Source: a virus (taxonomy: Duplodnaviria; Heunggongvirae; Uroviricota; Caudoviricetes). From it: 64,000 nucleotides of DNA. The stretch lies in the IMG/VR virus record IMGVR_UViG_3300031555_002005; one strand, 5' to 3'. The position numbers were made by a program, and so were the translations under genes. The first letter of the stretch is position 1. Every line of letters starts with the position of its first letter. Positions 5,099 through 41,509 of this stretch are shown piece after piece. The notes below the pieces were generated by a model. That model did not search any database. It worked only from the letters and a program-made list of their open reading frames with translations, and was not told the DNA's origin.

Positions 5099-5776
5099 AT
5101 GAAACAAGAAAAAGACTTTACAATGAGCAGACAGGAATACATAGATTTTCTTGCAAACAAAAGCAATGAAATCAATATGGGAAATAAGAACAGCAAGACT
5201 GGCGCAGCTTGTTTGAATCTTGCATTTCCTGTGGCTGTATGTCGTGAAGATGCACCTTGTAAGGCAACTTGCTATGCATGTAAAGGATGTCAGACTATGG
5301 CAAATGTGCAGGCAGCTTACTACAGAAATCTGAGACTGTATCATGATGATCCTGATAATTTCTTTGAACAGGTTTACTGCAAGGTAAAGTTCTCTGGACT
5401 ACCCAAAGTGAGACTGTTTGATAGTGGCGATTTTCCTGATGCAGACTTCTTGGTAAGGCTTGTGGATCTGTGTAAGAAAACTCCTGACACTAAGTATATG
5501 GCATTTACTAAGAAGTATGAGATTGTTAATGATTACATTGACAAGAATGGAGAGCTGCCTGAAAACCTTAACATTATATTCTCTGCATGGGACAAGCTTT
5601 GGGAAGTACCTAATCCTCATGGACTTGGTATGGCCTATGTGGATTTTAATGATAAGAGGTTGAATGCTGAATGGCCTAAAAACGCATTTATATGCCCCGG
5701 CAGAGCATCTACTTGTTCCGCTTGTGGCGCTTGCTGGTCTAAGAGACTTAAGGCAGTTGTGTTTCATCAGCACTAA
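5099..5776 (+). CDS. Cys-rich protein, possible Fe-S/radical-SAM-like phage protein
   Basis: TGGAGG RBS before the ATG at 5099; multiple CxxC/CxxxC clusters. Confidence 0.5.
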   Translation: MKQEKDFTMSRQEYIDFLANKSNEINMGNKNSKTGAACLNLAFPVAVCREDAPCKATCYACKGCQTMANVQAAYYRNLRLYHDDPDNFFEQVYCKVKFSGLPKVRLFDSGDFPDADFLVRLVDLCKKTPDTKYMAFTKKYEIVNDYIDKNGELPENLNIIFSAWDKLWEVPNPHGLGMAYVDFNDKRLNAEWPKNAFICPGRASTCSACGACWSKRLKAVVFHQH

Positions 5777-22079: not shown

Positions 22080-22108
22080 TTGACAAATAATGGAAAGTGT
22101 GCTATAAT
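22080..22108 (+). promoter_or_regulatory. sigma-A-type promoter (first of a tandem pair)
   Basis: CCCCTTGACAAAT-N-GTGCTATAATAC. Confidence 0.6.
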
Positions 22109-22158: not shown

Positions 22159-22187
22159 TTGACAAATGAAGAAAGATGTGCTATAAT
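22159..22187 (+). promoter_or_regulatory. sigma-A-type promoter (second of a tandem pair)
   Basis: GGCTTGACAAAT-N-GTGCTATAATAT. Confidence 0.6.
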
Positions 22188-22233: not shown

Positions 22234-22578
22234 ATGGCAATTAAGTATTTTGTAAACGAAGAGAAGCGACAGGTTATTGGTCTGCTGGAAAACACTCGGT
22301 GGGACGCACTGAATAAGATTTGTAAGACTGTTGCGGATACTGATTTTTGTGTAGTGCCCAATGAAAAGTACATGATGCCCTCTGAATTCAGAACTGTTGT
22401 CACCTGTGATCCTAGAGATGAGTTTGATGTAGAGATTGGTAAGAAGATTGCCAAGGAGCGTCTACTAAAGAATTATTACGCATCTCTTGATAAGCGTGTG
22501 AACAAGTTCTTGGACGCTGCGCTGATCTTCAATGGAAAGGTATTCAAGACTCCTGAAACGCTTGAAAATAACACTTGA
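22234..22578 (+). CDS. hypothetical protein
   Basis: GAGAGGAAC RBS before the ATG at 22234. Confidence 0.55.
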   Translation: MAIKYFVNEEKRQVIGLLENTRWDALNKICKTVADTDFCVVPNEKYMMPSEFRTVVTCDPRDEFDVEIGKKIAKERLLKNYYASLDKRVNKFLDAALIFNGKVFKTPETLENNT

Positions 22579-22603
22579 CAAAATGTAAGATGTATGATAT
22601 AAT
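22575..22603 (+). promoter_or_regulatory. sigma-A-type promoter driving the tRNA array
   Basis: TTGACA-N17-TATAAT followed by the conserved element. Confidence 0.55.
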
Positions 22604-22857: not shown

Positions 22858-22983
22858 GACGGTGTAGCTCAGTTGGAAGAGCAATAGCCTTTGTCAGATG
22901 CAGGCTTGCACTAATTCAGTTCGATTCTGAAGTTTGGCACCATAAGCTATGGGTCGAGAGTTCGAGCCTCTCCACCGTCACCA
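22858..22983 (+). tRNA. interrupted tRNA. A 57-nt anticodon loop (about 50 extra nt) contains a tRNA-like minihelix ending in CCA. Would be tRNA-Lys (UUU) if the insert is excised.
   Basis: Acceptor GACGGTG/CACCGTC; D-arm; anticodon stem ATAGC/GCTAT separated by 57 nt; T-arm GAGAG-TTCGAGC-CTCTC; CCA encoded. Confidence 0.55.
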
Positions 22984-23450: not shown

Positions 23451-23604
23451 ATCCCAGTAGCTCAGCTGGATAGAGCAACGGTCTTCGGGGAGTTCGTTAA
23501 AAGGTAAGATACTTTAGGATAAAACCTAAGGAGATTACAGTTCGAGTCTGTTGCTCCCCACCATAAACCGTAGGTCGGGGGTTCGAGTCCCTCCTGGGAT
23601 ACCA
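23451..23604 (+). tRNA. interrupted tRNA. An 87-nt anticodon loop (23483-23569) contains a nested tRNA-like element (23487-23563). Would be tRNA-Arg (UCU) if the element is excised.
   Basis: Acceptor ATCCCAG/CTGGGAT; D-arm GCTC..GAGC; anticodon stem ACGGT/ACCGT separated by 87 nt; T-arm GGGGG-TTCGAGT-CCCTC; CCA encoded. Confidence 0.55.
23487..23563 (+). ncRNA. nested tRNA-like element inside the anticodon loop (acceptor GGGGAGT/GCTCCCC, anticodon arm TTAGG-ATAAAAC-CCTAA, T-arm, CCA)
   Basis: Folded by hand; ends ACCA; flanked by CTTC and TAA, which would join into a 7-nt loop CTTCTAA. Confidence 0.4.
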
Positions 23605-25214: not shown

Positions 25215-25700
25215 ATGAATATTGAACAAGTAATTCTTTATAAAAGAATCGAAAAAGTACTTAAGAATTACCTAATAAATGACTTGGGTGATTCACAAAT
25301 GAAGAAAAAGGAAAGCTATTGTTTGAATTGTGGAGTTTCTATACCAAATAGAAATAAATATTGCTCAAACAAATGCCAACTAGATTTCCAATATAAAGAG
25401 TATATACAGAGATGGAAAAATGGGCTTGAAGATGGTATGAGAGGTGAATATCTTATATCAGTACACATTAGAAAATATTTAATGGAAAAGTTTGATAACA
25501 AATGCTCAAAATGTGGATGGGGAGAAATAAATCCTTATACCAAAAATGTACCACTAGAAGTCCATCATAAAGATGGAGATTATACCAATAATTCAGAAGA
25601 CAATCTTGACTTACTATGTCCAAATTGTCACTCATTAACAGAAACATATAAAGCTGCAAATAAAGGCAATGGAAGAAAAGATCGTAAAAAATACACATAA
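25215..25700 (+). CDS. HNH homing endonuclease
   Basis: EVHHKDGD...NLDLLCPNCH. Confidence 0.7.
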   Translation: MNIEQVILYKRIEKVLKNYLINDLGDSQMKKKESYCLNCGVSIPNRNKYCSNKCQLDFQYKEYIQRWKNGLEDGMRGEYLISVHIRKYLMEKFDNKCSKCGWGEINPYTKNVPLEVHHKDGDYTNNSEDNLDLLCPNCHSLTETYKAANKGNGRKDRKKYT

Positions 25701-25777: not shown

Positions 25778-25914
25778 TATTAAAAGCACAAGTGGATAAG
25801 TACTTTATAGTCAACTGACTAGTCATGTCACGAAAGGTAAGACGAGTTTGCACAAAAATGGCCATGGACATTTAGTGATGAATCCGCAAATCTACGAAAC
25901 GGAGGATATTGCCT

Positions 25915-25962
25915 ATGATTGTTTGTAGTGAATCCAGTGTGGGGGACACCCCACCCGCTTAG
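25915..25962 (+). CDS. conserved 15-codon mini-ORF (MIVCSESSVGDTPPA), copy A
   Basis: GGAGGA RBS; homologous copy at 30959; followed by hairpin 25971-25998 and then the next gene. Confidence 0.4.
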   Translation: MIVCSESSVGDTPPA

Positions 25963-26017
25963 TAGTGGGTTTCGCCGTTCCCACCAAAAACGGCGAACTT
26001 AATTAAGAGGTAATAAA

Positions 26018-26200
26018 ATGTGTAAACACCAAAACGGAAGTATATCAAGTATGTTTGGCATTCCAGTAGATCCTTGTGTGTACAAGGATATTGAAGCATA
26101 CAAGAATGTAACAGTAATTGTTAGCAAATGTATTCACTGTGGTGCTATTAATATCAGTTGGAAGCGTCAGGAAGATACTGAAGAAATTGAAGTTGAGTAA
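26018..26200 (+). CDS. Cys-containing small protein
   Basis: AGAGGTAA RBS. Confidence 0.5.
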   Translation: MCKHQNGSISSMFGIPVDPCVYKDIEAYKNVTVIVSKCIHCGAINISWKRQEDTEEIEVE

Positions 26201-26208
26201 TTAAATAT

Positions 26209-26299
26209 GGGGAATTGGCCGAGTGGTCGAAGGCAGCTGACTTGAAATCAGTAGACGGTGCTGAGCCGTCCGTGGGTTCGAATCCTACATTCCCCGCCA
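26209..26299 (+). tRNA. tRNA-Ser (UGA), CCA encoded
   Basis: Class II; anticodon loop CTTGAAA. Confidence 0.75.
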
Positions 26300-27064: not shown

Positions 27065-27093
27065 TTGACAAATCTTAAAACATGTGATATAAT
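27065..27093 (+). promoter_or_regulatory. sigma-A-type promoter
   Basis: TTGACA-N17-TATAAT, followed by the conserved element and tRNAs. Confidence 0.55.
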
Positions 27094-27322: not shown

Positions 27323-27922
27323 TTGACATTGGCGAAACATGTAACTACAGAAGAAATAGCAACAAGAATAAAAAATACTTTTAAACAAAATGTTTCATTA
27401 GTTGGAGAATATAAGAATAAACGATCAAAATTAACATTACATTGTAATGATTGTGGACATGAATGGGAATCTCCATCAAGTAGTGTTATATATGGAGATA
27501 GACACGAGTGTCCTCGGTGTGGAAGACATGCAAAACAATTGAATGAATTTCAATGTACAAACTGTGGACAAGTTGTGTATCGTAAAGATTCAGACATTAA
27601 AAAGAATCAAACAGGTAATTTCTTTTGTTCTCAACAATGTGGAAATGAGTTTAAAAATCGAATACGAAAAGAAAGTGGAGAATGGGATAACTCGTTAAGC
27701 TATAGACGGAAAGCATTTGAAACTTATGAACATTTATGTTGTGTATGCGGTTGGAATGAAGATGAAAGAATTTTAGAAGTTCATCATAAAGATGAAGATC
27801 GTACAAACAATATGGTAAATAATCTATGTATTCTATGTCCTACATGTCATAGAAAAATAACATTAGGATATTATGAATTAACAGATGATTTCAAGCTAGT
27901 TGATAAAAATCAAAAGAATTAA
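27323..27922 (+). CDS. HNH homing endonuclease (start uncertain)
   Basis: EVHHKDEDRTNN...CPTCHRK; N-terminal CxxC pairs. Confidence 0.65.
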   Translation: MTLAKHVTTEEIATRIKNTFKQNVSLVGEYKNKRSKLTLHCNDCGHEWESPSSSVIYGDRHECPRCGRHAKQLNEFQCTNCGQVVYRKDSDIKKNQTGNFFCSQQCGNEFKNRIRKESGEWDNSLSYRRKAFETYEHLCCVCGWNEDERILEVHHKDEDRTNNMVNNLCILCPTCHRKITLGYYELTDDFKLVDKNQKN

Positions 27923-28212: not shown

Positions 28213-28240
28213 TTGACAAATCAGAATTATATGATATAAT
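28213..28240 (+). promoter_or_regulatory. sigma-A-type promoter for the tRNA-like cluster
   Basis: TTGACA-N16-TATAAT, then the conserved element. Confidence 0.5.
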
Positions 28241-28560: not shown

Positions 28561-28582
28561 AAAAATCCCACTAACTTAATAT

Positions 28583-28712
28583 GCGGAAGTAGCTCAGCTG
28601 GGAGAGCAATAGTATTTATTTAAAAATGTGTTTAGATTAACACTAACAGCAATTTTTATTTAAAGAAGAAGTTGGGGACTATGGGTCGTAGGTTCGAGCC
28701 CTACCTTCCGCA
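28583..28712 (+). tRNA. interrupted tRNA: 64-nt anticodon loop carrying the ACAGCAATTTTTA motif
   Basis: Acceptor GCGGAAG/CTTCCGC; D-arm GCTC-AGCTGGGA-GAGC; anticodon stem ATAGT/ACTAT separated by 64 nt; T-arm GTAGG-TTCGAGC-CCTAC. Confidence 0.5.
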
Positions 28713-28724
28713 TCAACTAAATAT

Positions 28725-28852
28725 GCCAGAGTAGCTCAGTTGGTAGAGCACGTATATATCAACCAACGTGGTATGAAAATTTCACGCACAGCAATTTTAA
28801 TGATTCTTGCCTTTTAAGCACGTTGTCGTGGGTTCGAGTCCCATCTCTGGCA
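28725..28852 (+). tRNA. interrupted tRNA: about 55 extra nt between the D- and T-arms carrying the ACAGCAATTTTA motif
   Basis: Acceptor GCCAGAG/CTCTGGC; D-arm GCTC-AGTTGGTA-GAGC; T-arm GTGGG-TTCGAGT-CCCAT. Confidence 0.45.
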
Positions 28853-28862
28853 AACTTTATAT

Positions 28863-29353: not shown

Positions 29354-30907
29354 ATGGAATTTATGAGTGCAGTTAGACAGACTCTCAATAATGAGTACAA
29401 TGTGTCTATCACTGAGAACGGCGCAGTTGGTTATAGAACCACTGGCAAGGAGCTGCTTGACCTGAACTTTGCAGTAGCATCTCTTCGTAAGATGACCGAT
29501 GCAGAAGTCGCAAAGAGATTCAAGAAGGCTTTTTGTGAAGATCAGGTTCTCGCAATGAAGTGGCTGTTCTACGCAAGAGACGTTCGTGGTGGTTTGGGTG
29601 AGCGTAGACTGTTCAGAGTTGTTCTGGCAGATCTGGTACAGTCCAATCCTGAAATGGTTATTCCTGTCATGAATCTGATTCCTGAGTATGGTCGCTACGA
29701 TGACCTGTGGTGTCTGTTAGATGACAAGGAAGCAGCTAATGTGATTTATCAGATTGTTGATAATCAGCTGAAGCGTGACTGGGAAAACATGGCTTCAAAG
29801 AAGCCTATTTCTATTCTGGCAAAGTGGATGCCTTCTATCAATGCATCTTCTGCTAAGACCAAGGAATACGGAAAGAAGCTGTGCAAGGCTCTGAAGATGA
29901 CTGAGCGTGAATACCGCAAGGCTCTGAGCAAGCTTCGTGCATATCTGGATGTTGTTGAAGTTAAGATGTCCGATAAGAACTGGTCTGCAATTAAGTATGA
30001 AGCAGTTCCTTCTCGTGCAAATCTGATTTACAACAGCGCATTCCTGAGAAATGACGAAGCAAGACGTAGAGAATATCTTGGCCAGCTTGAAAAGGGCGAG
30101 ACTAAGATTAACGCATCTACTCTGTTCCCTCACGATATTGCTCATAAGTATACTAACAACTCATGGGGTCGTGGTCTAAAGGCAAAGGATGCAACCATTG
30201 AAGCTCTGTGGAAGGCGCTACCTGACACTGTAAATGGCTGTGGTAATACTATTGTTGTTGCTGACGGCTCTGGTAGTATGACTTGCACTGTTGACAATCA
30301 CTCTCGTGTTACTGCACTTGAAGTTGCAAACGCACTGGCAATTTACTTTGCTGAGCACTCTTCTGGTCAGTTCAAGGATAAGTACATTACTTTCTCTGAA
30401 AGACCTCAGTTTGTTGACTTCAGCAATTGTAAGACTCTGCATGACAAGCTACACACTGCACTAATGCATAATGAAGTTGCAAATACTAACATCGAAAAGG
30501 TGTTTGATTTGATTCTGACTTCTGCGGTCAATAACCATATGCATCAGGAAGATCTTCCTCAGAACATCCTGATCATCTCTGATATGGAGTTTGATAGCTG
30601 TGCAACTTCTGGCAATGTTGATCGTTGGAGCTACCGTAACAGACCTACTCAGAAGCTATTCGATGTTATCGCTCAGAAGTACGCAAGAGCAGGTTACAAG
30701 ATGCCTCGTCTGGTATTCTGGAATGTAAACTCTCGCACTGGTACTATTCCTGTAAAGGAAAATGACCTTGGTGTGGCACTGGTCAGCGGTTTCTCTGTAA
30801 ACGTTGCCAAGATGGTCATGAGTGGCAAGACTGATCCTTTCGAGTGTCTGCTTGAAACTCTGAACTCTGAGAGATATGCTCCTGTTGAGGAAGCTTTAAA
30901 TCAGTAA
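29354..30907 (+). CDS. vWA-domain protein (DUF2828-like; possibly a Ro60/TROVE-related RNA-binding protein)
   Basis: MIDAS motif VVADGSGSM in the C-terminal half; helical N-terminal domain; GGAGG RBS. The family assignment is from memory. Confidence 0.5.
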   Translation: MEFMSAVRQTLNNEYNVSITENGAVGYRTTGKELLDLNFAVASLRKMTDAEVAKRFKKAFCEDQVLAMKWLFYARDVRGGLGERRLFRVVLADLVQSNPEMVIPVMNLIPEYGRYDDLWCLLDDKEAANVIYQIVDNQLKRDWENMASKKPISILAKWMPSINASSAKTKEYGKKLCKALKMTEREYRKALSKLRAYLDVVEVKMSDKNWSAIKYEAVPSRANLIYNSAFLRNDEARRREYLGQLEKGETKINASTLFPHDIAHKYTNNSWGRGLKAKDATIEALWKALPDTVNGCGNTIVVADGSGSMTCTVDNHSRVTALEVANALAIYFAEHSSGQFKDKYITFSERPQFVDFSNCKTLHDKLHTALMHNEVANTNIEKVFDLILTSAVNNHMHQEDLPQNILIISDMEFDSCATSGNVDRWSYRNRPTQKLFDVIAQKYARAGYKMPRLVFWNVNSRTGTIPVKENDLGVALVSGFSVNVAKMVMSGKTDPFECLLETLNSERYAPVEEALNQ

Positions 30908-30958
30908 ACTGGTACACGCAAGTGTCTTGTTTAAATAATCCAAAGGAGGACTTTGCCT

Positions 30959-31006
30959 ATGATTGTATCAGCTAATTCCAACTTGGAGGATTGTCCACCA
31001 GCTTAG
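30959..31006 (+). CDS. conserved 15-codon mini-ORF (MIVSANSNLEDCPPA), copy B
   Basis: GGAGGA RBS; about 75-nt conserved element shared with 25893-25975. Confidence 0.4.
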   Translation: MIVSANSNLEDCPPA

Positions 31007-31073
31007 GTGGAGTCCTGGGTAAGACTTAAAACTGCCCATTCAGACATTAACAGCAAACAATAATTACTTGGTT

Positions 31074-31148
31074 GCGAGGTTAGCTTAGCTGGTCTAAAGC
31101 AATAGATGTGAAAATCTATGATCACTGGTTCGAACCCAGTACCTTGTG
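31074..31148 (+). tRNA. tRNA-like with a non-canonical (6- or 8-nt) anticodon loop; identity undetermined; no CCA
   Basis: Acceptor GCGAGGT/ACCTTGT with G-U pairs; D-arm GCTT..AAGC; ATAGA-TGTGAAAA-TCTAT; T-arm ACTGG-TTCGAAC-CCAGT. Confidence 0.4.
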
Positions 31149-31176
31149 TTTAAGTGATAATGTCTAGTTTCTATAT

Positions 31177-31544: not shown

Positions 31545-32465
31545 ATGAGAAAAGGTAGTATTGGCGCAATTCTTCTGGCATTTCTGATCTTTGGTGGACT
31601 GCTTCTATGTCTAGCATGCACAGAAAAGATTCCGACTGGTTATGTTGGTGTTGTTTACAACATGAGCGGTGGCGTAGATGGTGAAGTGCTTTCCCAGGGC
31701 TTCCATATCGTAGCACCCACTAAGAAGGTAACCACTTATTCTGTAGGACTAGAGCAGAGTTATCTGTCTTCTGAAGATGTTGGCGACTCCCCGAAGGATG
31801 AAAGTTTCAACATTCCTACTTCTGATGGTAAGACTGTCCGTGTAAATCTAGAATTCTCTTATCGTTTTGATTCCGAGCGTGTTGCAGAAACCTTTACTAT
31901 GTTTAAGGGTAAGTCTGGTGAAAACATTAAGGAAACCTTTATTAAGCCCAAGGTAATGGCATGGACTCAGGAAGTTTCCGCAAAGTATCCTGTTACAGAC
32001 ATTTTTGGTGACAAGCGTACTGCTATCAATGCAGAGCTAGACATTTATCTGCGTGAAAAGTTTGCACCTTATGGCATTATTATTGACACTGTAAACTTTA
32101 CTGACATTTCTGTTGACAATGAAACTGCCGCAGCAATTCAGAAGAAGGTTAATGCACAGCAGGAACTAGAGCTTGCAAACATTGAAGCAGAAACTGCAAA
32201 GATTCAGGCCCAGAAGGACAAAGAGGTTGCACGTGTTCAGGCAGAAAAGGACAAGGAAGTTGCCGCTATTAAGGCAGAGCAGAAGATTATTGCAGCCGAA
32301 GCAGATGCCGAGGCACTAAGAATTGCATCTGAAGCAGAAGCAGAAGCAAACCGTGAGATCGCAGCTTCTCTGACTCCTCAGCTAATCGAGAAGATTAAGT
32401 ATGAGCAGTGGAATGGTCAGATGCCCAAGGTCACTGGTGGCAGTTCTATTGTAAGTATTGATTAA
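31545..32465 (+). CDS. SPFH/band-7 (prohibitin/HflK-like) membrane protein
   Basis: N-terminal TM; SPFH core; Ala/Glu-rich coiled-coil repeats. Confidence 0.7.
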   Translation: MRKGSIGAILLAFLIFGGLLLCLACTEKIPTGYVGVVYNMSGGVDGEVLSQGFHIVAPTKKVTTYSVGLEQSYLSSEDVGDSPKDESFNIPTSDGKTVRVNLEFSYRFDSERVAETFTMFKGKSGENIKETFIKPKVMAWTQEVSAKYPVTDIFGDKRTAINAELDIYLREKFAPYGIIIDTVNFTDISVDNETAAAIQKKVNAQQELELANIEAETAKIQAQKDKEVARVQAEKDKEVAAIKAEQKIIAAEADAEALRIASEAEAEANREIAASLTPQLIEKIKYEQWNGQMPKVTGGSSIVSID

Positions 32466-40123: not shown

Positions 40124-41509
40124 ATGGCTTATACAGCATTTATTACAAGAATTAAGAATCTGCGTACACACCCTAAGGCGGATCGACTGCAGATGGGTGA
40201 GTGCTTTGGTAACACTGTAATTGTCTCTCTGGAATACGAGGACAACCAGCTTGGCATTTACTTCCCTTCTGATGGACAGATTAGCACTGCATTTGCAGAA
40301 GCAAATAACCTGCTTCGCAAGAAGGATGAAAACGGCAATAACATTGGCGGTTACATGGATCCCGACAAGCGCAACGTCACTGCTATTAAGCTTCGTGGAG
40401 AAAAGTCTGATGGCCTGTTCCTGCCTCTGAAGTCTCTTGAGCCTTTTGGTGACATTACCACTCTGCGTGAGGGTGACCGAATTGATAACTTTAATGGACA
40501 TGAGATTTGCTGCAAGTATGTACCTTTTAAGCGTGAACGTACTGCCGCAGGTGGAGCAGGAAAGCGCATTAAGCGTAGAGCTAAGAGAAGCATTGCACCT
40601 CTGTTTTATGAGCATATGGACACTGAGCAGCTCGCCTACAATCTGGCAGCTTTTAAGCCCGGTGACGAGATTGAAATCACTCTAAAGATGCATGGCACTT
40701 CTCAGCGAACTGCACACCTACCTGTGTTTAAGGACTACAAGCGCACAATCTGGGACAAACTATTCCGTCGTGAAGGTACTCCTGTTTATGATTGGGGTTA
40801 CGTCTCTGGCACTCGTCGTACTGTTCTAGAGAATTTTGAAGGTGGATATTATGGATCTAACGAGTTCCGTGAAGCACATTCTAAGTTCTTTGAGGGCAAG
40901 CTGTGGAAGGGCGAAGAGGTCTACTACGAGGTGGTTGGTTTCACTCATACTGGCGCACCTATTATGTCTACGGCAGACAATAAGAAGCTGAACGACAAGG
41001 AGTTTGTTAAGCAGTATGGAAAGACTACTACTTTCTCTTATGGTTGTGCCCCTGATGGTGTAAATTCCGCAGATGGAGTTATTCCTCAGTCTGATATCTA
41101 CGTTTACCGTATGACAATGACCAATGAAGATGGTGATGTTGTCGAGTACACTCCTGATTTCATGCGCTATCGTTGTGAGCAGATGGGTGTTAAGACTGTC
41201 CCTGTGATGTGGAAGGGCACTATTCCTTACGCAGATTGGCTTGAAGCTAACACGTGGGAAAGCGCAGGGCATTATGCAATTACTCGTGCAGAAAAGTACT
41301 ATGATGGTCCCGACCCTATTGGCAAGACTCATGTCCGTGAAGGCGTTGTAGTTCGTATTCTGAACCGTCCTAAATTCTGTGCATACAAGCATAAGAACTG
41401 GTCTTTCAAGGCTCTTGAAGGAATTGTTAAGGTTGAAGCTGAGGCTCCTGATATGGAAGAAGCCGATGGCATTAATGAGGAAGTGATGACTGATGAATTT
41501 TCACAGTGA
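40124..41509 (+). CDS. RNA ligase (Rnl2/Rnl5-type nucleotidyltransferase) fused to an N-terminal EMAP/Trbp111-type tRNA-binding OB domain
   Basis: N-terminus HPKADRL...SDGLF resembles a tRNA-binding OB fold. Ligase motif I LKMHGTS (KxHG), motif IV EGVVVR, motif V KHKNWSFK. Confidence 0.7.
   Translation: MAYTAFITRIKNLRTHPKADRLQMGECFGNTVIVSLEYEDNQLGIYFPSDGQISTAFAEANNLLRKKDENGNNIGGYMDPDKRNVTAIKLRGEKSDGLFLPLKSLEPFGDITTLREGDRIDNFNGHEICCKYVPFKRERTAAGGAGKRIKRRAKRSIAPLFYEHMDTEQLAYNLAAFKPGDEIEITLKMHGTSQRTAHLPVFKDYKRTIWDKLFRREGTPVYDWGYVSGTRRTVLENFEGGYYGSNEFREAHSKFFEGKLWKGEEVYYEVVGFTHTGAPIMSTADNKKLNDKEFVKQYGKTTTFSYGCAPDGVNSADGVIPQSDIYVYRMTMTNEDGDVVEYTPDFMRYRCEQMGVKTVPVMWKGTIPYADWLEANTWESAGHYAITRAEKYYDGPDPIGKTHVREGVVVRILNRPKFCAYKHKNWSFKALEGIVKVEAEAPDMEEADGINEEVMTDEFSQ

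Follow-up and report, generated by a model that had tools for sequence, protein, structure and literature searches.

Two kinds of described system come close to the element reported here. The leader-peptide attenuators (trpL, hisL) and arrest peptides (ermCL, tnaC, secM, mifM) place a short open reading frame (ORF) with its own ribosome-binding site (RBS) in a leader together with mutually exclusive hairpins, and in them the peptide is less important than the position of the ribosome. The luteovirus-type frameshift pseudoknots and the readthrough signal of murine leukaemia virus (MuLV) are compact H-type pseudoknots in which stem 1 measures 4-5 bp and stem 2 measures 6 bp, loop 1 is a single C, one nucleotide forms the junction and loop 3 is rich in A; they are located 5-8 nt downstream of the A-site codon. 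Features of both meet in a module that occurs twice in the tRNA array of an uncultured phage, within a stretch of 64,000 nucleotides (hereafter the window) from the IMG/VR virus record IMGVR_UViG_3300031555_002005 (Caudoviricetes). A phage tRNA array is commonly regarded as nothing more than a row of tRNA genes, whereas this one contains a conserved mini-cistron, apparently translated, that is joined to a pseudoknot. The ingredients, that is a leader ORF, an H-type pseudoknot and tRNA-punctuated processing, are known, yet their combination and the widespread occurrence of the knot behind stop codons appear to be undescribed; literature searches aimed at an earlier account of the module or of the knot brought none to light.

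The module departs from both precedents. Different from attenuators and arrest peptides, it has no intrinsic terminator (a GC-rich hairpin followed by a U tract is present at neither copy), no run of regulatory codons and no downstream ORF with an RBS, the 'gene' downstream being a tRNA; moreover, its putative stall motif is not universal and its ORF is shorter than known arrest peptides. The knot shares the dimensions of the viral recoding signals, but its A-site codon is a genuine stop without a slippery site or an extended frame, its hosts are bacterial, and no recoding product is possible in the tRNA-adjacent copies.

Both copies, at 25890-25998 (copy A) and 30935-31040 (copy B) on the plus strand, are present as first described in an earlier note on this DNA, which had pointed to two homologous elements encoding 15-residue peptides behind GGAGGA-N8. 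Their likeness is beyond chance, since the 14-mer TTGCCTATGATTGT occurs exactly twice in the window (every other match needs 3 mismatches), a family profile built from the copies matches copy A at E = 1e-31 and copy B at E = 1e-25 (nhmmer), and about 30 homologous copies exist elsewhere. In copy A, a Shine-Dalgarno (SD) sequence GGAGGA at 25901-25906 stands 8 nt 5' of the AUG at 25915, in type and spacing as in the ordinary genes of the window, which carry AAGGAGG-type SDs; the mini-ORF (25915-25962) has 15 codons plus UAG and encodes MIVCSESSVGDTPPA. Its frame is kept in all homologues. A predicted hairpin P2 (25939-25954, GUGGGG/CCCCAC) uses an SD-like G-run within the ORF as 5' arm. It is followed by hairpin P3 (25953-25970, ACCCGCU/AGUGGGU), which holds the stop codon UAG in its tetraloop and overlaps with its 3' arm stem 1 of an H-type pseudoknot at 25965-25997. 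In this knot GUGGG (25965-25969) pairs with CCCAC (25980-25984) to form stem 1 (S1), UUCGCCG (25971-25977) pairs with CGGCGAA (25991-25997) to form stem 2 (S2), and loop 3 is A-rich (CAAAAA). It is the sole match of its kind in the window and covaries in orthologues. The hairpin that the earlier note had seen behind copy A is thus real in its two arms, TTCGCCG and CGGCGAA, but these make up S2 of the pseudoknot. Nor is it peculiar to copy A, as copy B has an equivalent pseudoknot.

Copy B begins 28 nt past the stop codon of a gene for a DUF2828/DUF7788 protein (29354-30907) and ends 33 nt before a tRNA gene. Upstream of it lies a small hairpin, ACAC-GCAA-GUGU (30914-30925), followed by the AU-rich sequence UUGUUUAAAUAAUCC; covarying equivalents (GUAC/GUAC, CACAC/GUGUG, GCAC/GUGC) precede other B-type copies. 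The SD (GGAGGA, 30945-30950, in the context AAGGAGGA) serves a mini-ORF of 15 codons plus UAG (30959-31006, MIVSANSNLEDCPPA), in which codons 9-11 contain a second, internal GGAGGA (30985-30990) that is the 5' arm of P2 and is kept as GGAGG in most copies. P2 pairs UGGA (30984-30987) with UCCA (30994-30997), and P3 (30994-31011, UCCACC/GGUGGA, covarying across copies) has the two Pro codons as 5' arm and the stop codon in its loop. The pseudoknot of copy B (31010-31038) is built of GAGUC (31010-31014) paired with GACUU (31023-31027), a loop 1 of C31015, UGGGUA (31016-31021) paired with UGCCCA (31033-31038), and the loop 3 sequence AAAAC. The first tRNA gene 3' of copy B is at 31073-31149 and is followed by tRNA-Met and tRNA-Leu. 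Downstream of copy A, an ORF of 60 codons (26018-26200) intervenes before the tRNA-Ser(UGA) gene at 26209-26299; relatives lack that ORF, and tRNA-Ser directly follows their A-type copies. These tRNAs, the small upstream hairpin and all parts of both copies are on the plus strand.

The two copies belong to a family. Scanning viral, metagenome and genome contigs with sequence patterns, searching the fetched loci with profiles and scanning for the pseudoknot alone yielded 30 distinct copies, which fall into two orthologous types. They come from contigs of uncultured phages, for the most part from ruminant or other gut metagenomes (for example giraffe and yak caecum). The search for further copies that the earlier note had advised was therefore productive, while its estimate of about 75 nt for the element fell short, the actual length being about 105-110 nt. 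Orthologues of copy A were found at L002, L003, L005, L007, L021, L026, L037, L030 and L063, usually before tRNA-Ser, and orthologues of copy B at L001, L004, L014, L016-L019, L022-L024, L031, L032, L040, L048, L051, L061, L072 and L134, usually before tRNA-Met. A third, sequence-divergent type stands before tRNA-Lys (L009/L010, L183). In nearly all copies a tRNA gene starts 3-10 nt past the module, and its identity varies over at least eight kinds (Met, Ser, Ala, Arg, Asp, Glu, Leu, Lys); several copies also have another tRNA ending 3-47 nt upstream. Two to three paralogues are retained per genome across related phages. A regular-expression search of the window and the loci for M-I-...-PP-stop behind an SD returned the known copies only, and megablast and blastn searches with the region and with each copy found no homologue of the mini-ORF element in cultured phages.

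At the RNA level the 14-mer around the AUG lies in the loop of an imperfect hairpin P1, in which the 3' half of the SD pairs with UCC of codon 7. P2 spans codons 9-14, with the SD-like GGAGG as 5' arm and CUCC or UCC as 3' arm; its register shifts between copies and its length never does (UGGAG/CUCCA, GGAGGA/UCCUCC and CGGAG/CUCCG in homologues). The 5' arm of P3 is made of the Pro codons, the stop codon, when present, is in the loop, and the stem covaries (CCAC/GUGG, CCCC/GGGG, CCGC/GCGG, CCAAUC/GAUUGG, CCGA/UCGG). The knot that follows has the form S1 GUGGG/CCCAC, S2 (UU)CGCCG/CGGCG(AA) and loop 3 CAAAAA in the A type, and S1 (G)AGUC/GACU(U), loop 1 C, S2 UGGGYA/UGCCCA and loop 3 NAAAC in the B type. 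Both stems covary in both types, S1 with the variants AUGGG/CCCAU(U), GAG/CUC, GUUC/GAAC, GGUG/CACC and CGUC/GACG, and S2 with GGCCG/CGGCC, UGCCG/CGGCA, GAGCA/UGCUC, AGGCA/UGCCU and UGCGCCA/UGGCGCA. In the A type P3 and S1 both need the same GUGGG and hence are mutually exclusive; in the B type an extended P3 overlaps S1 by 2-3 nt. The knot begins 2-4 nt past the stop codon of the mini-ORF. RNAalifold on a plain MAFFT alignment recovered almost nothing of this, owing to the register shifts of the hairpins and to the knotted 3' part, and was replaced by explicit stem searches.

Is the mini-ORF a maintained reading frame? The arrangement GGAGGA-N8(9)-AUG is invariant, also in copies that were retrieved without using the SD and AUG (L003-B, L061, L063, L134, L072/L183), and it is kept in the third subfamily before tRNA-Lys (L009, L183). 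Frame-disrupting indels, which the earlier note had named as the sign of an element acting as RNA rather than as peptide, are absent: from the AUG to codon 14 (42 nt) there is none in 30 copies, as opposed to many after codon 14. In the third type Pro-Pro is shifted by one codon relative to the A and B types, to codons 14-15, and the two variants of this type have the same length from AUG to Pro-Pro despite widely differing middles. The frame statistics, which ignore the relatedness of the sequences and are indicative only, point in the same direction. No in-frame stop occurs where 4.85 are expected from column frequencies, whereas stops in the other two frames fit expectation (11 versus 8.7 and 37 versus 34.9); the ratio of nonsynonymous to synonymous polymorphism (pN/pS) is 0.67 in frame versus 1.48 and 0.92 in the other frames; and variability by codon position falls in the order 3 > 2 > 1. 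The codon-level comparison proposed in the earlier note thus gives a lower ratio in frame, but also a highly variable middle of the peptide.

Overall the peptide is poorly conserved. The ORF has 15 codons in 18 copies, 16 in 3 and, where the stop is lost, 21-40 in 9. Pro-Pro is present in 25 of the 30 copies and replaced by Pro-Ile or Pro-Lys in the other five, in which P3 pairing is retained; the flanking residues vary, and the C-termini seen include PPA, PPV, PPEA, PIG and PKF directly before the stop as well as extensions of 6-25 residues. The D(T/C)PPA-stop ending to which the earlier note had given weight is therefore not a conserved feature. With the peptides of the other subfamilies the third one shares Pro-Pro alone, and every conserved amino acid coincides with an RNA pairing or an SD-like segment. 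The stop is UAG in 11 of the 30 mini-ORFs. A run of regulatory codons matching the downstream tRNA was looked for in the mini-ORFs and is absent; the middle codons are variable and the eight or more tRNA identities are unrelated to codon content. Taken together, these patterns suggest that the frame is kept open and probably translated, whereas in our reading the peptide product is not the thing selected.

The pseudoknot, by contrast, is not confined to the module. A scan of viral contigs with the pattern CTGGGYANGANNNNAAACTGCCC retrieved at least 120 contigs, only a handful of which contain the mini-ORF; UC immediately 5' of the pattern, and not part of it, was seen in 114 of 115 instances. 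When 112 distinct B-type knots are compared, one base pair of S1 is intact in all of them, with six pair types, and the next in 86. The covariation score of 0.261 compares with 0.103 in shuffles, none of which reached it (0 of 500), and with a maximum of 0.093 in slid controls. These loci (L067-L185) come from viral contigs of many environments. Copy B fits the family consensus nnUC-C-UGGGYA-N-GAnn-nnAAAC-UGCCC without mismatch at 31013-31037, the sole such site in the window. The A-type knot, too, was found alone (L060, L062/L064, L065). In a further locus (L146) two knots in tandem, about 35 nt apart, stand about 70 nt upstream of the matched knot, the first being the variant UCCUGGGUACAGACGUUAAACUGCCC.

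The stand-alone knots typically have one of two settings, 5-7 nt behind the stop codon of a gene or 3-6 nt ahead of a tRNA. An ORF of at least 80 codons ends just upstream of 72 of 111 instances, and the distance from its stop codon to S1 peaks sharply at 5-7 nt (38 of the 72), as compared to the 2-4 nt of the mini-ORF copies. The upstream genes use UAG as stop in 27 of 72 cases and are repeatedly capsid-like (ending in ...KNRL... or ...AAYAAAGSSVFS and a stop) and small heat-shock-like (ending in ...PEEKKPKTITIK and a stop), kinds of gene that are probably highly expressed. Eight of the 111 knots that lack a mini-ORF have a tRNA beginning 3-13 nt downstream. Practically no stand-alone knot has the end of a short ORF immediately before it, so that the knot has no general need for a mini-ORF.

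The knot is represented in phages from the rumen, the sea and soil, and BLAST with a knot query of 36 nt finds matches in cultured phages as well. Among these matches the knot sequence was read for two. That of Moorella phage MTATph1 (L189, 170434-170462) fits the consensus, and Staphylococcus aureus Phietavirus B166 (L188, NC_028859.1, 21040-21066) has, at about 85% identity, a candidate variant, CGAC-C-UUAGCA-U-GUCG-UUAAAC-UGCU, whose stem 2 has only 4 bp; it is flanked by the genes for the minor head protein and the scaffold, in a stretch for which the record gives a predicted promoter. Further BLAST matches to the query fall in Corynebacterium, Nostoc and Latilactobacillus phages and in a microvirus-like record.

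Searches of Rfam 15, whose families include preQ1, SAM-II/V, guanidine-III, pistol, HDV-like and tmRNA, gave no match to the element or the knot at E <= 1-10 for both copies and 12 other knot loci, with a sensitivity limited by the fact that covariance models cannot represent pseudoknots. The A-type knot (GGUUUC-stem-UUCC...AAAAA-stem) does align locally to model positions 57-84 of the wcaG RNA of marine cyanophages (RF01761), but at 15.2 and 19.1 bits against a gathering score of 42, over one hairpin of the 98-nt model and in another context. Several further assignments were considered and set aside. For a one- or two-piece tmRNA, ARAGORN finds no candidate, and the ORF, which possesses both an SD and an AUG, is not inside the tRNA; for a tmRNA-like or T-box-like RNA, boxA antitermination, a self-cleaving ribozyme (pistol, HDV-like/theta), preQ1-I and guanidine-III there are no model matches or defining features. 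Sequence alone would not be enough to dismiss ribozyme and ligand-binding ideas.

We favour, tentatively, the reading that the module consists of a mini-cistron that is translated and of a pseudoknot that caps it on the 3' side, where the knot would mark and protect an RNA boundary made by RNase P cleavage, a function which, judged from sequence, we hold to be possible rather than probable. The mini-cistron, with its strong RBS, about 15 codons, a frame that is kept and a peptide free to vary, would be transcribed together with the compact knot within long early transcripts that start at upstream consensus σ70-type promoters. Cleavage by RNase P at the downstream tRNA would then create an RNA 3' end a few nucleotides beyond the pseudoknot, which would serve as a non-terminating 3' cap that blocks 3'-to-5' exonucleases, stabilises the upstream RNA and insulates the folding of the neighbouring tRNA. 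Ribosomes on the mini-ORF would cover the segment up to the cap and melt P2 and P3, which compete with stem 1; the act of translation would matter and the peptide would not. The module would thus be a minimal capped cistron at junctions inside tRNA arrays. We read the knot as such a cap or boundary because of where it is placed. In the ribosome the helicase site is about 11 nt downstream of the first P-site nucleotide, and hence a knot 5-7 nt past a stop codon stands at about the shortest distance at which it would escape unwinding by a terminating ribosome; and with the knot 3-8 nt before the tRNA, the 3' tail left after cleavage by RNase P would be too short for a 3'-to-5' exonuclease to grip.

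There are functional parallels to parts of this reading. At the 3' ends of MALAT1 and MEN-beta a downstream tRNA-like structure is cut by RNase P (in MALAT1 releasing mascRNA) and an A-rich tertiary structure upstream could protect the end, but the analogy is one of function only: these are eukaryotic nuclear long non-coding RNAs with a U-rich/A-rich triple helix instead of an H-type knot, there is no relation in sequence, and in the module both the cut by RNase P and the protection are putative. The 5' stabilisers of Firmicutes (the ermC leader with its stalled ribosome, the cryIIIA STAB-SD and the polypurine element of phage SP82) likewise use a perfect SD-like sequence and/or a short translated leader that holds a ribosome and alters decay, and the phage of the window has Firmicute-like SDs and promoters. 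However, these protect downstream mRNA from 5'-to-3' decay, whereas the RNA downstream of the module is a tRNA that would be cut away by RNase P. Finally, phages are known to possess short non-tRNA units that are transcribed together with tRNAs or close to them and are set free by the enzymes of tRNA processing (T4 species 1 and 2 RNAs), as well as minigenes, short ORFs that are translated and influence translation in cis or in trans (the lambda bar minigenes); they have no relation to the module in sequence or structure, and the bar minigenes are 2-codon ORFs that act via peptidyl-tRNA drop-off.

But why would a tRNA need a translated spacer as leader? The cap model leaves this unexplained, and further observations weigh against it. 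The coding signal is modest (pN/pS about 0.7), the statistic on avoided stops being one that ignores sequence relatedness. In the 9 of 30 copies that have lost the stop codon the ORF runs into the pseudoknot, and an intact cap during translation is thus not essential. About 70% pairing of the SD of the mini-ORF in predicted nested folds is odd for a heavily translated cistron. Moreover, a simple stable hairpin would also block exonucleases, and still the knot is strongly conserved in sequence (UC-C-UGGGYA...AAAC-UGCCC), a possible sign of a specific partner (the ribosome, RNase P, some protein or a ligand, for example) that the cap model does not name. A bolder version, which we consider unlikely, is that the knot represents a widespread new class of phage RNA element at the interface of the terminating ribosome and RNA processing which binds a universal partner (the ribosome or RNase P), and that the mini-ORF delivers ribosomes to it in an otherwise untranslated tRNA array.

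The most serious competitor of the capped mini-cistron, which we nevertheless regard as rather unlikely, is a structured RNA without any coding role, be it a small RNA cut out of the array or an element acting in cis, in which the SD-like tracts and the AUG would be structural and the open frame a by-product. The conserved 'amino acids' can indeed all be read as RNA features, GGAGGA as the 5' arm of P2, UCC as the partner of the SD, CCNCC as arms of P2 and P3 and AUGAUUG as the loop at the tip of P1; covariation is seen in P3 and the pseudoknot, but neither the stop codon nor Pro-Pro persists; the SD is, as just mentioned, predicted to be about 70% paired; and the neighbours are non-coding RNAs, with drum RNA abutting A-type copies (L002, L007, L021, L026) and GOLLD and pistol RNAs in related contigs. 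Such an RNA would not readily explain, however, why indels are absent across two hairpin loops and frequent after codon 14, why in-frame stops are avoided, why variability follows a codon period, why SD-N8-AUG is kept in three sequence-divergent subfamilies, or why the pairing of P2 shifts register at a fixed total length. At the other extreme, the ORF might be the gene of a functional micropeptide of about 15 residues (MI[VA]x[SA][EKN]Sxx[EG][DE]xPP...), highly expressed and owing its stability to the 3' pseudoknot, as seems to hold for capsid genes of other phages. This would account for a gene-like layout of RBS, ORF and stop followed at a similar distance by the same knot as behind real, probably highly expressed genes, and for the two to three paralogues per genome; we find it distinctly unlikely in view of the highly variable middle with its pN/pS of about 0.7, a C-terminus that is free to change, and a third subfamily that has only Pro-Pro in common with the others.

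The earlier note had itself suggested a stalling or attenuation leader peptide, possibly a device that senses tRNA or elongation factor P (EF-P). Spelled out, a ribosome stalled at Pro-Pro-(Ala)-stop would sense Pro-tRNA, EF-P or general translation capacity, and a hairpin switch would control expression or maturation of the downstream tRNAs. The geometry of this model we retain, as the SD-like tract, Pro-Pro and the leading edge of the pseudoknot meet at one ribosome position: the SD-like GGAGG lies 4-7 nt before the Pro codons and stem 1 of the knot 8-10 nt past the second of them, and GGAGG, CCNCC, GUGG(G) and CCCAC can pair 1:2, 2:3 or 3:4 in the manner of an attenuator. That the mini-ORF is translated is likewise probable from its open frame and the preserved SD-N8-AUG. 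A stalling or attenuation device, on the other hand, is improbable. There is no U-tract terminator, the hairpin, which is followed by ACUUAAUUAAG or AUUCAGAC, being S2 of the pseudoknot, and what follows within 3-10 nt is a tRNA and not an ORF whose RBS could be unmasked. The identity of this tRNA varies without match to the codon content, Pro-Pro is replaced in five copies with the pairing kept, and the position of the stop is not conserved. Further, the variable residues around Pro-Pro are not strong EF-P-dependent contexts, a nascent chain of 13-14 residues is shorter than known arrest peptides, and the pseudoknot occurs in more than 100 phage contigs without any such leader. A classical attenuator or a sensor of EF-P or tRNA is thus not supported. 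The resemblance to viral knots, finally, raises the possibility of recoding, by -1/+1 frameshifting or stop readthrough at CCA-CCC-GCU-UAG, for which one could cite a compact H-type knot with an A-rich loop 3 at 5-7 nt past the A-site codon and the frequent use of UAG. Yet there is no canonical slippery heptamer (X XXY YYZ), no frame extends past the stop (the median extension is 7-10 codons in all three frames), a spacing of 5, 6 or 7 nt is not frame-locked, and in the mini-ORF copies a tRNA gene begins a few nucleotides past the knot, so that we consider recoding extremely improbable.

If the knot is a 3' cap or processing boundary, phages would have a means to set the stabilities of segments within long polycistronic transcripts without terminating transcription, and a compact part would be at hand for synthetic biology. 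If the mini-ORF delivers ribosomes to the knot, the maturation or stability of phage tRNAs would depend on ongoing translation. Should the B166 candidate be a true member of the family, the question would be directly testable in a genetically tractable phage.

The window is an early, replication-type region of a large uncultured phage, for which no close relative was found among cultured phages. It encodes a DnaB-like helicase, a large DNA polymerase, an RNA ligase, RecJ, an NAD-dependent ligase and an NMN adenylyltransferase, and a plus-strand array of more than 20 tRNA genes with HNH endonuclease genes interspersed. Five perfect 12/12 σ70 consensus promoters (TTGACA-17-TGnTATAAT), each with the extended -10 TG and all on the plus strand (22080-22108, 22159-22187, 22575-22603, 27065-27093 and 28213-28240), presumably drive the tRNA array and early genes. 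None of these perfect consensus promoters of the window lies directly upstream of copy A or B, and the copies are therefore internal to long transcripts. The HNH genes, with zinc-ribbon N-termini, are inserted between tRNA genes at 25215-25700 and 27323-27922, and the array looks like a target of homing elements. The DUF2828/DUF7788 protein upstream of copy B, which we take to be Ro60/TROVE-like and which matches a PHROG family named 'RNA-binding protein', a Band-7/SPFH protein encoded after the tRNAs (31545-32465) and the RNA ligase (40124-41509) all lie within or beside the array, which suggests a theme of RNA repair or tRNA protection.

The tRNA islands of these phages appear rich in non-coding RNAs. 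Drum RNA (RF02958, 58-74 bits) abuts the 5' end of A-type copies with about 2 nt of overlap at L002 (5646-5756), L007 (7622-7732), L021 (868-985) and L026 (4743-4853), as a separate unit upstream of the module, and occurs also at L072 (2085-2194); the Rfam search detected none in the window. A pistol ribozyme (61.6 bits) lies directly 3' of a tRNA at L031 (1743-1812), and a related phage contig (L008, 1-145) has a piece of a GOLLD RNA (36.6 bits) that is cut off by the end of the contig. Directly 3' of the A-type copy of L002 is a long tRNA-like gene of about 108 nt, GAAGCAG...CUGCUUCACCA (about 5425-5533, minus strand), which may be another insertion-bearing tRNA; the same type of sequence is found in L003, L005 and L008, without an ARAGORN call. 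In the window itself, four Rfam tRNA matches are 123-151 nt long (22858-22983, 23451-23604, 28582-28714 and 28724-28853), and ARAGORN, with introns allowed, places insertions of 50-77 nt in or near the anticodon loop of each. The last of them is called tRNA-Stop with the anticodon UUA, a possible ochre suppressor. A weak YrlA-like match (25 bits, against a gathering score of 69) lies at 28680-28757, and an ORF of 419 codons at 1208-2467 matches reverse-transcriptase families (phrog_1423, E = 1e-18).

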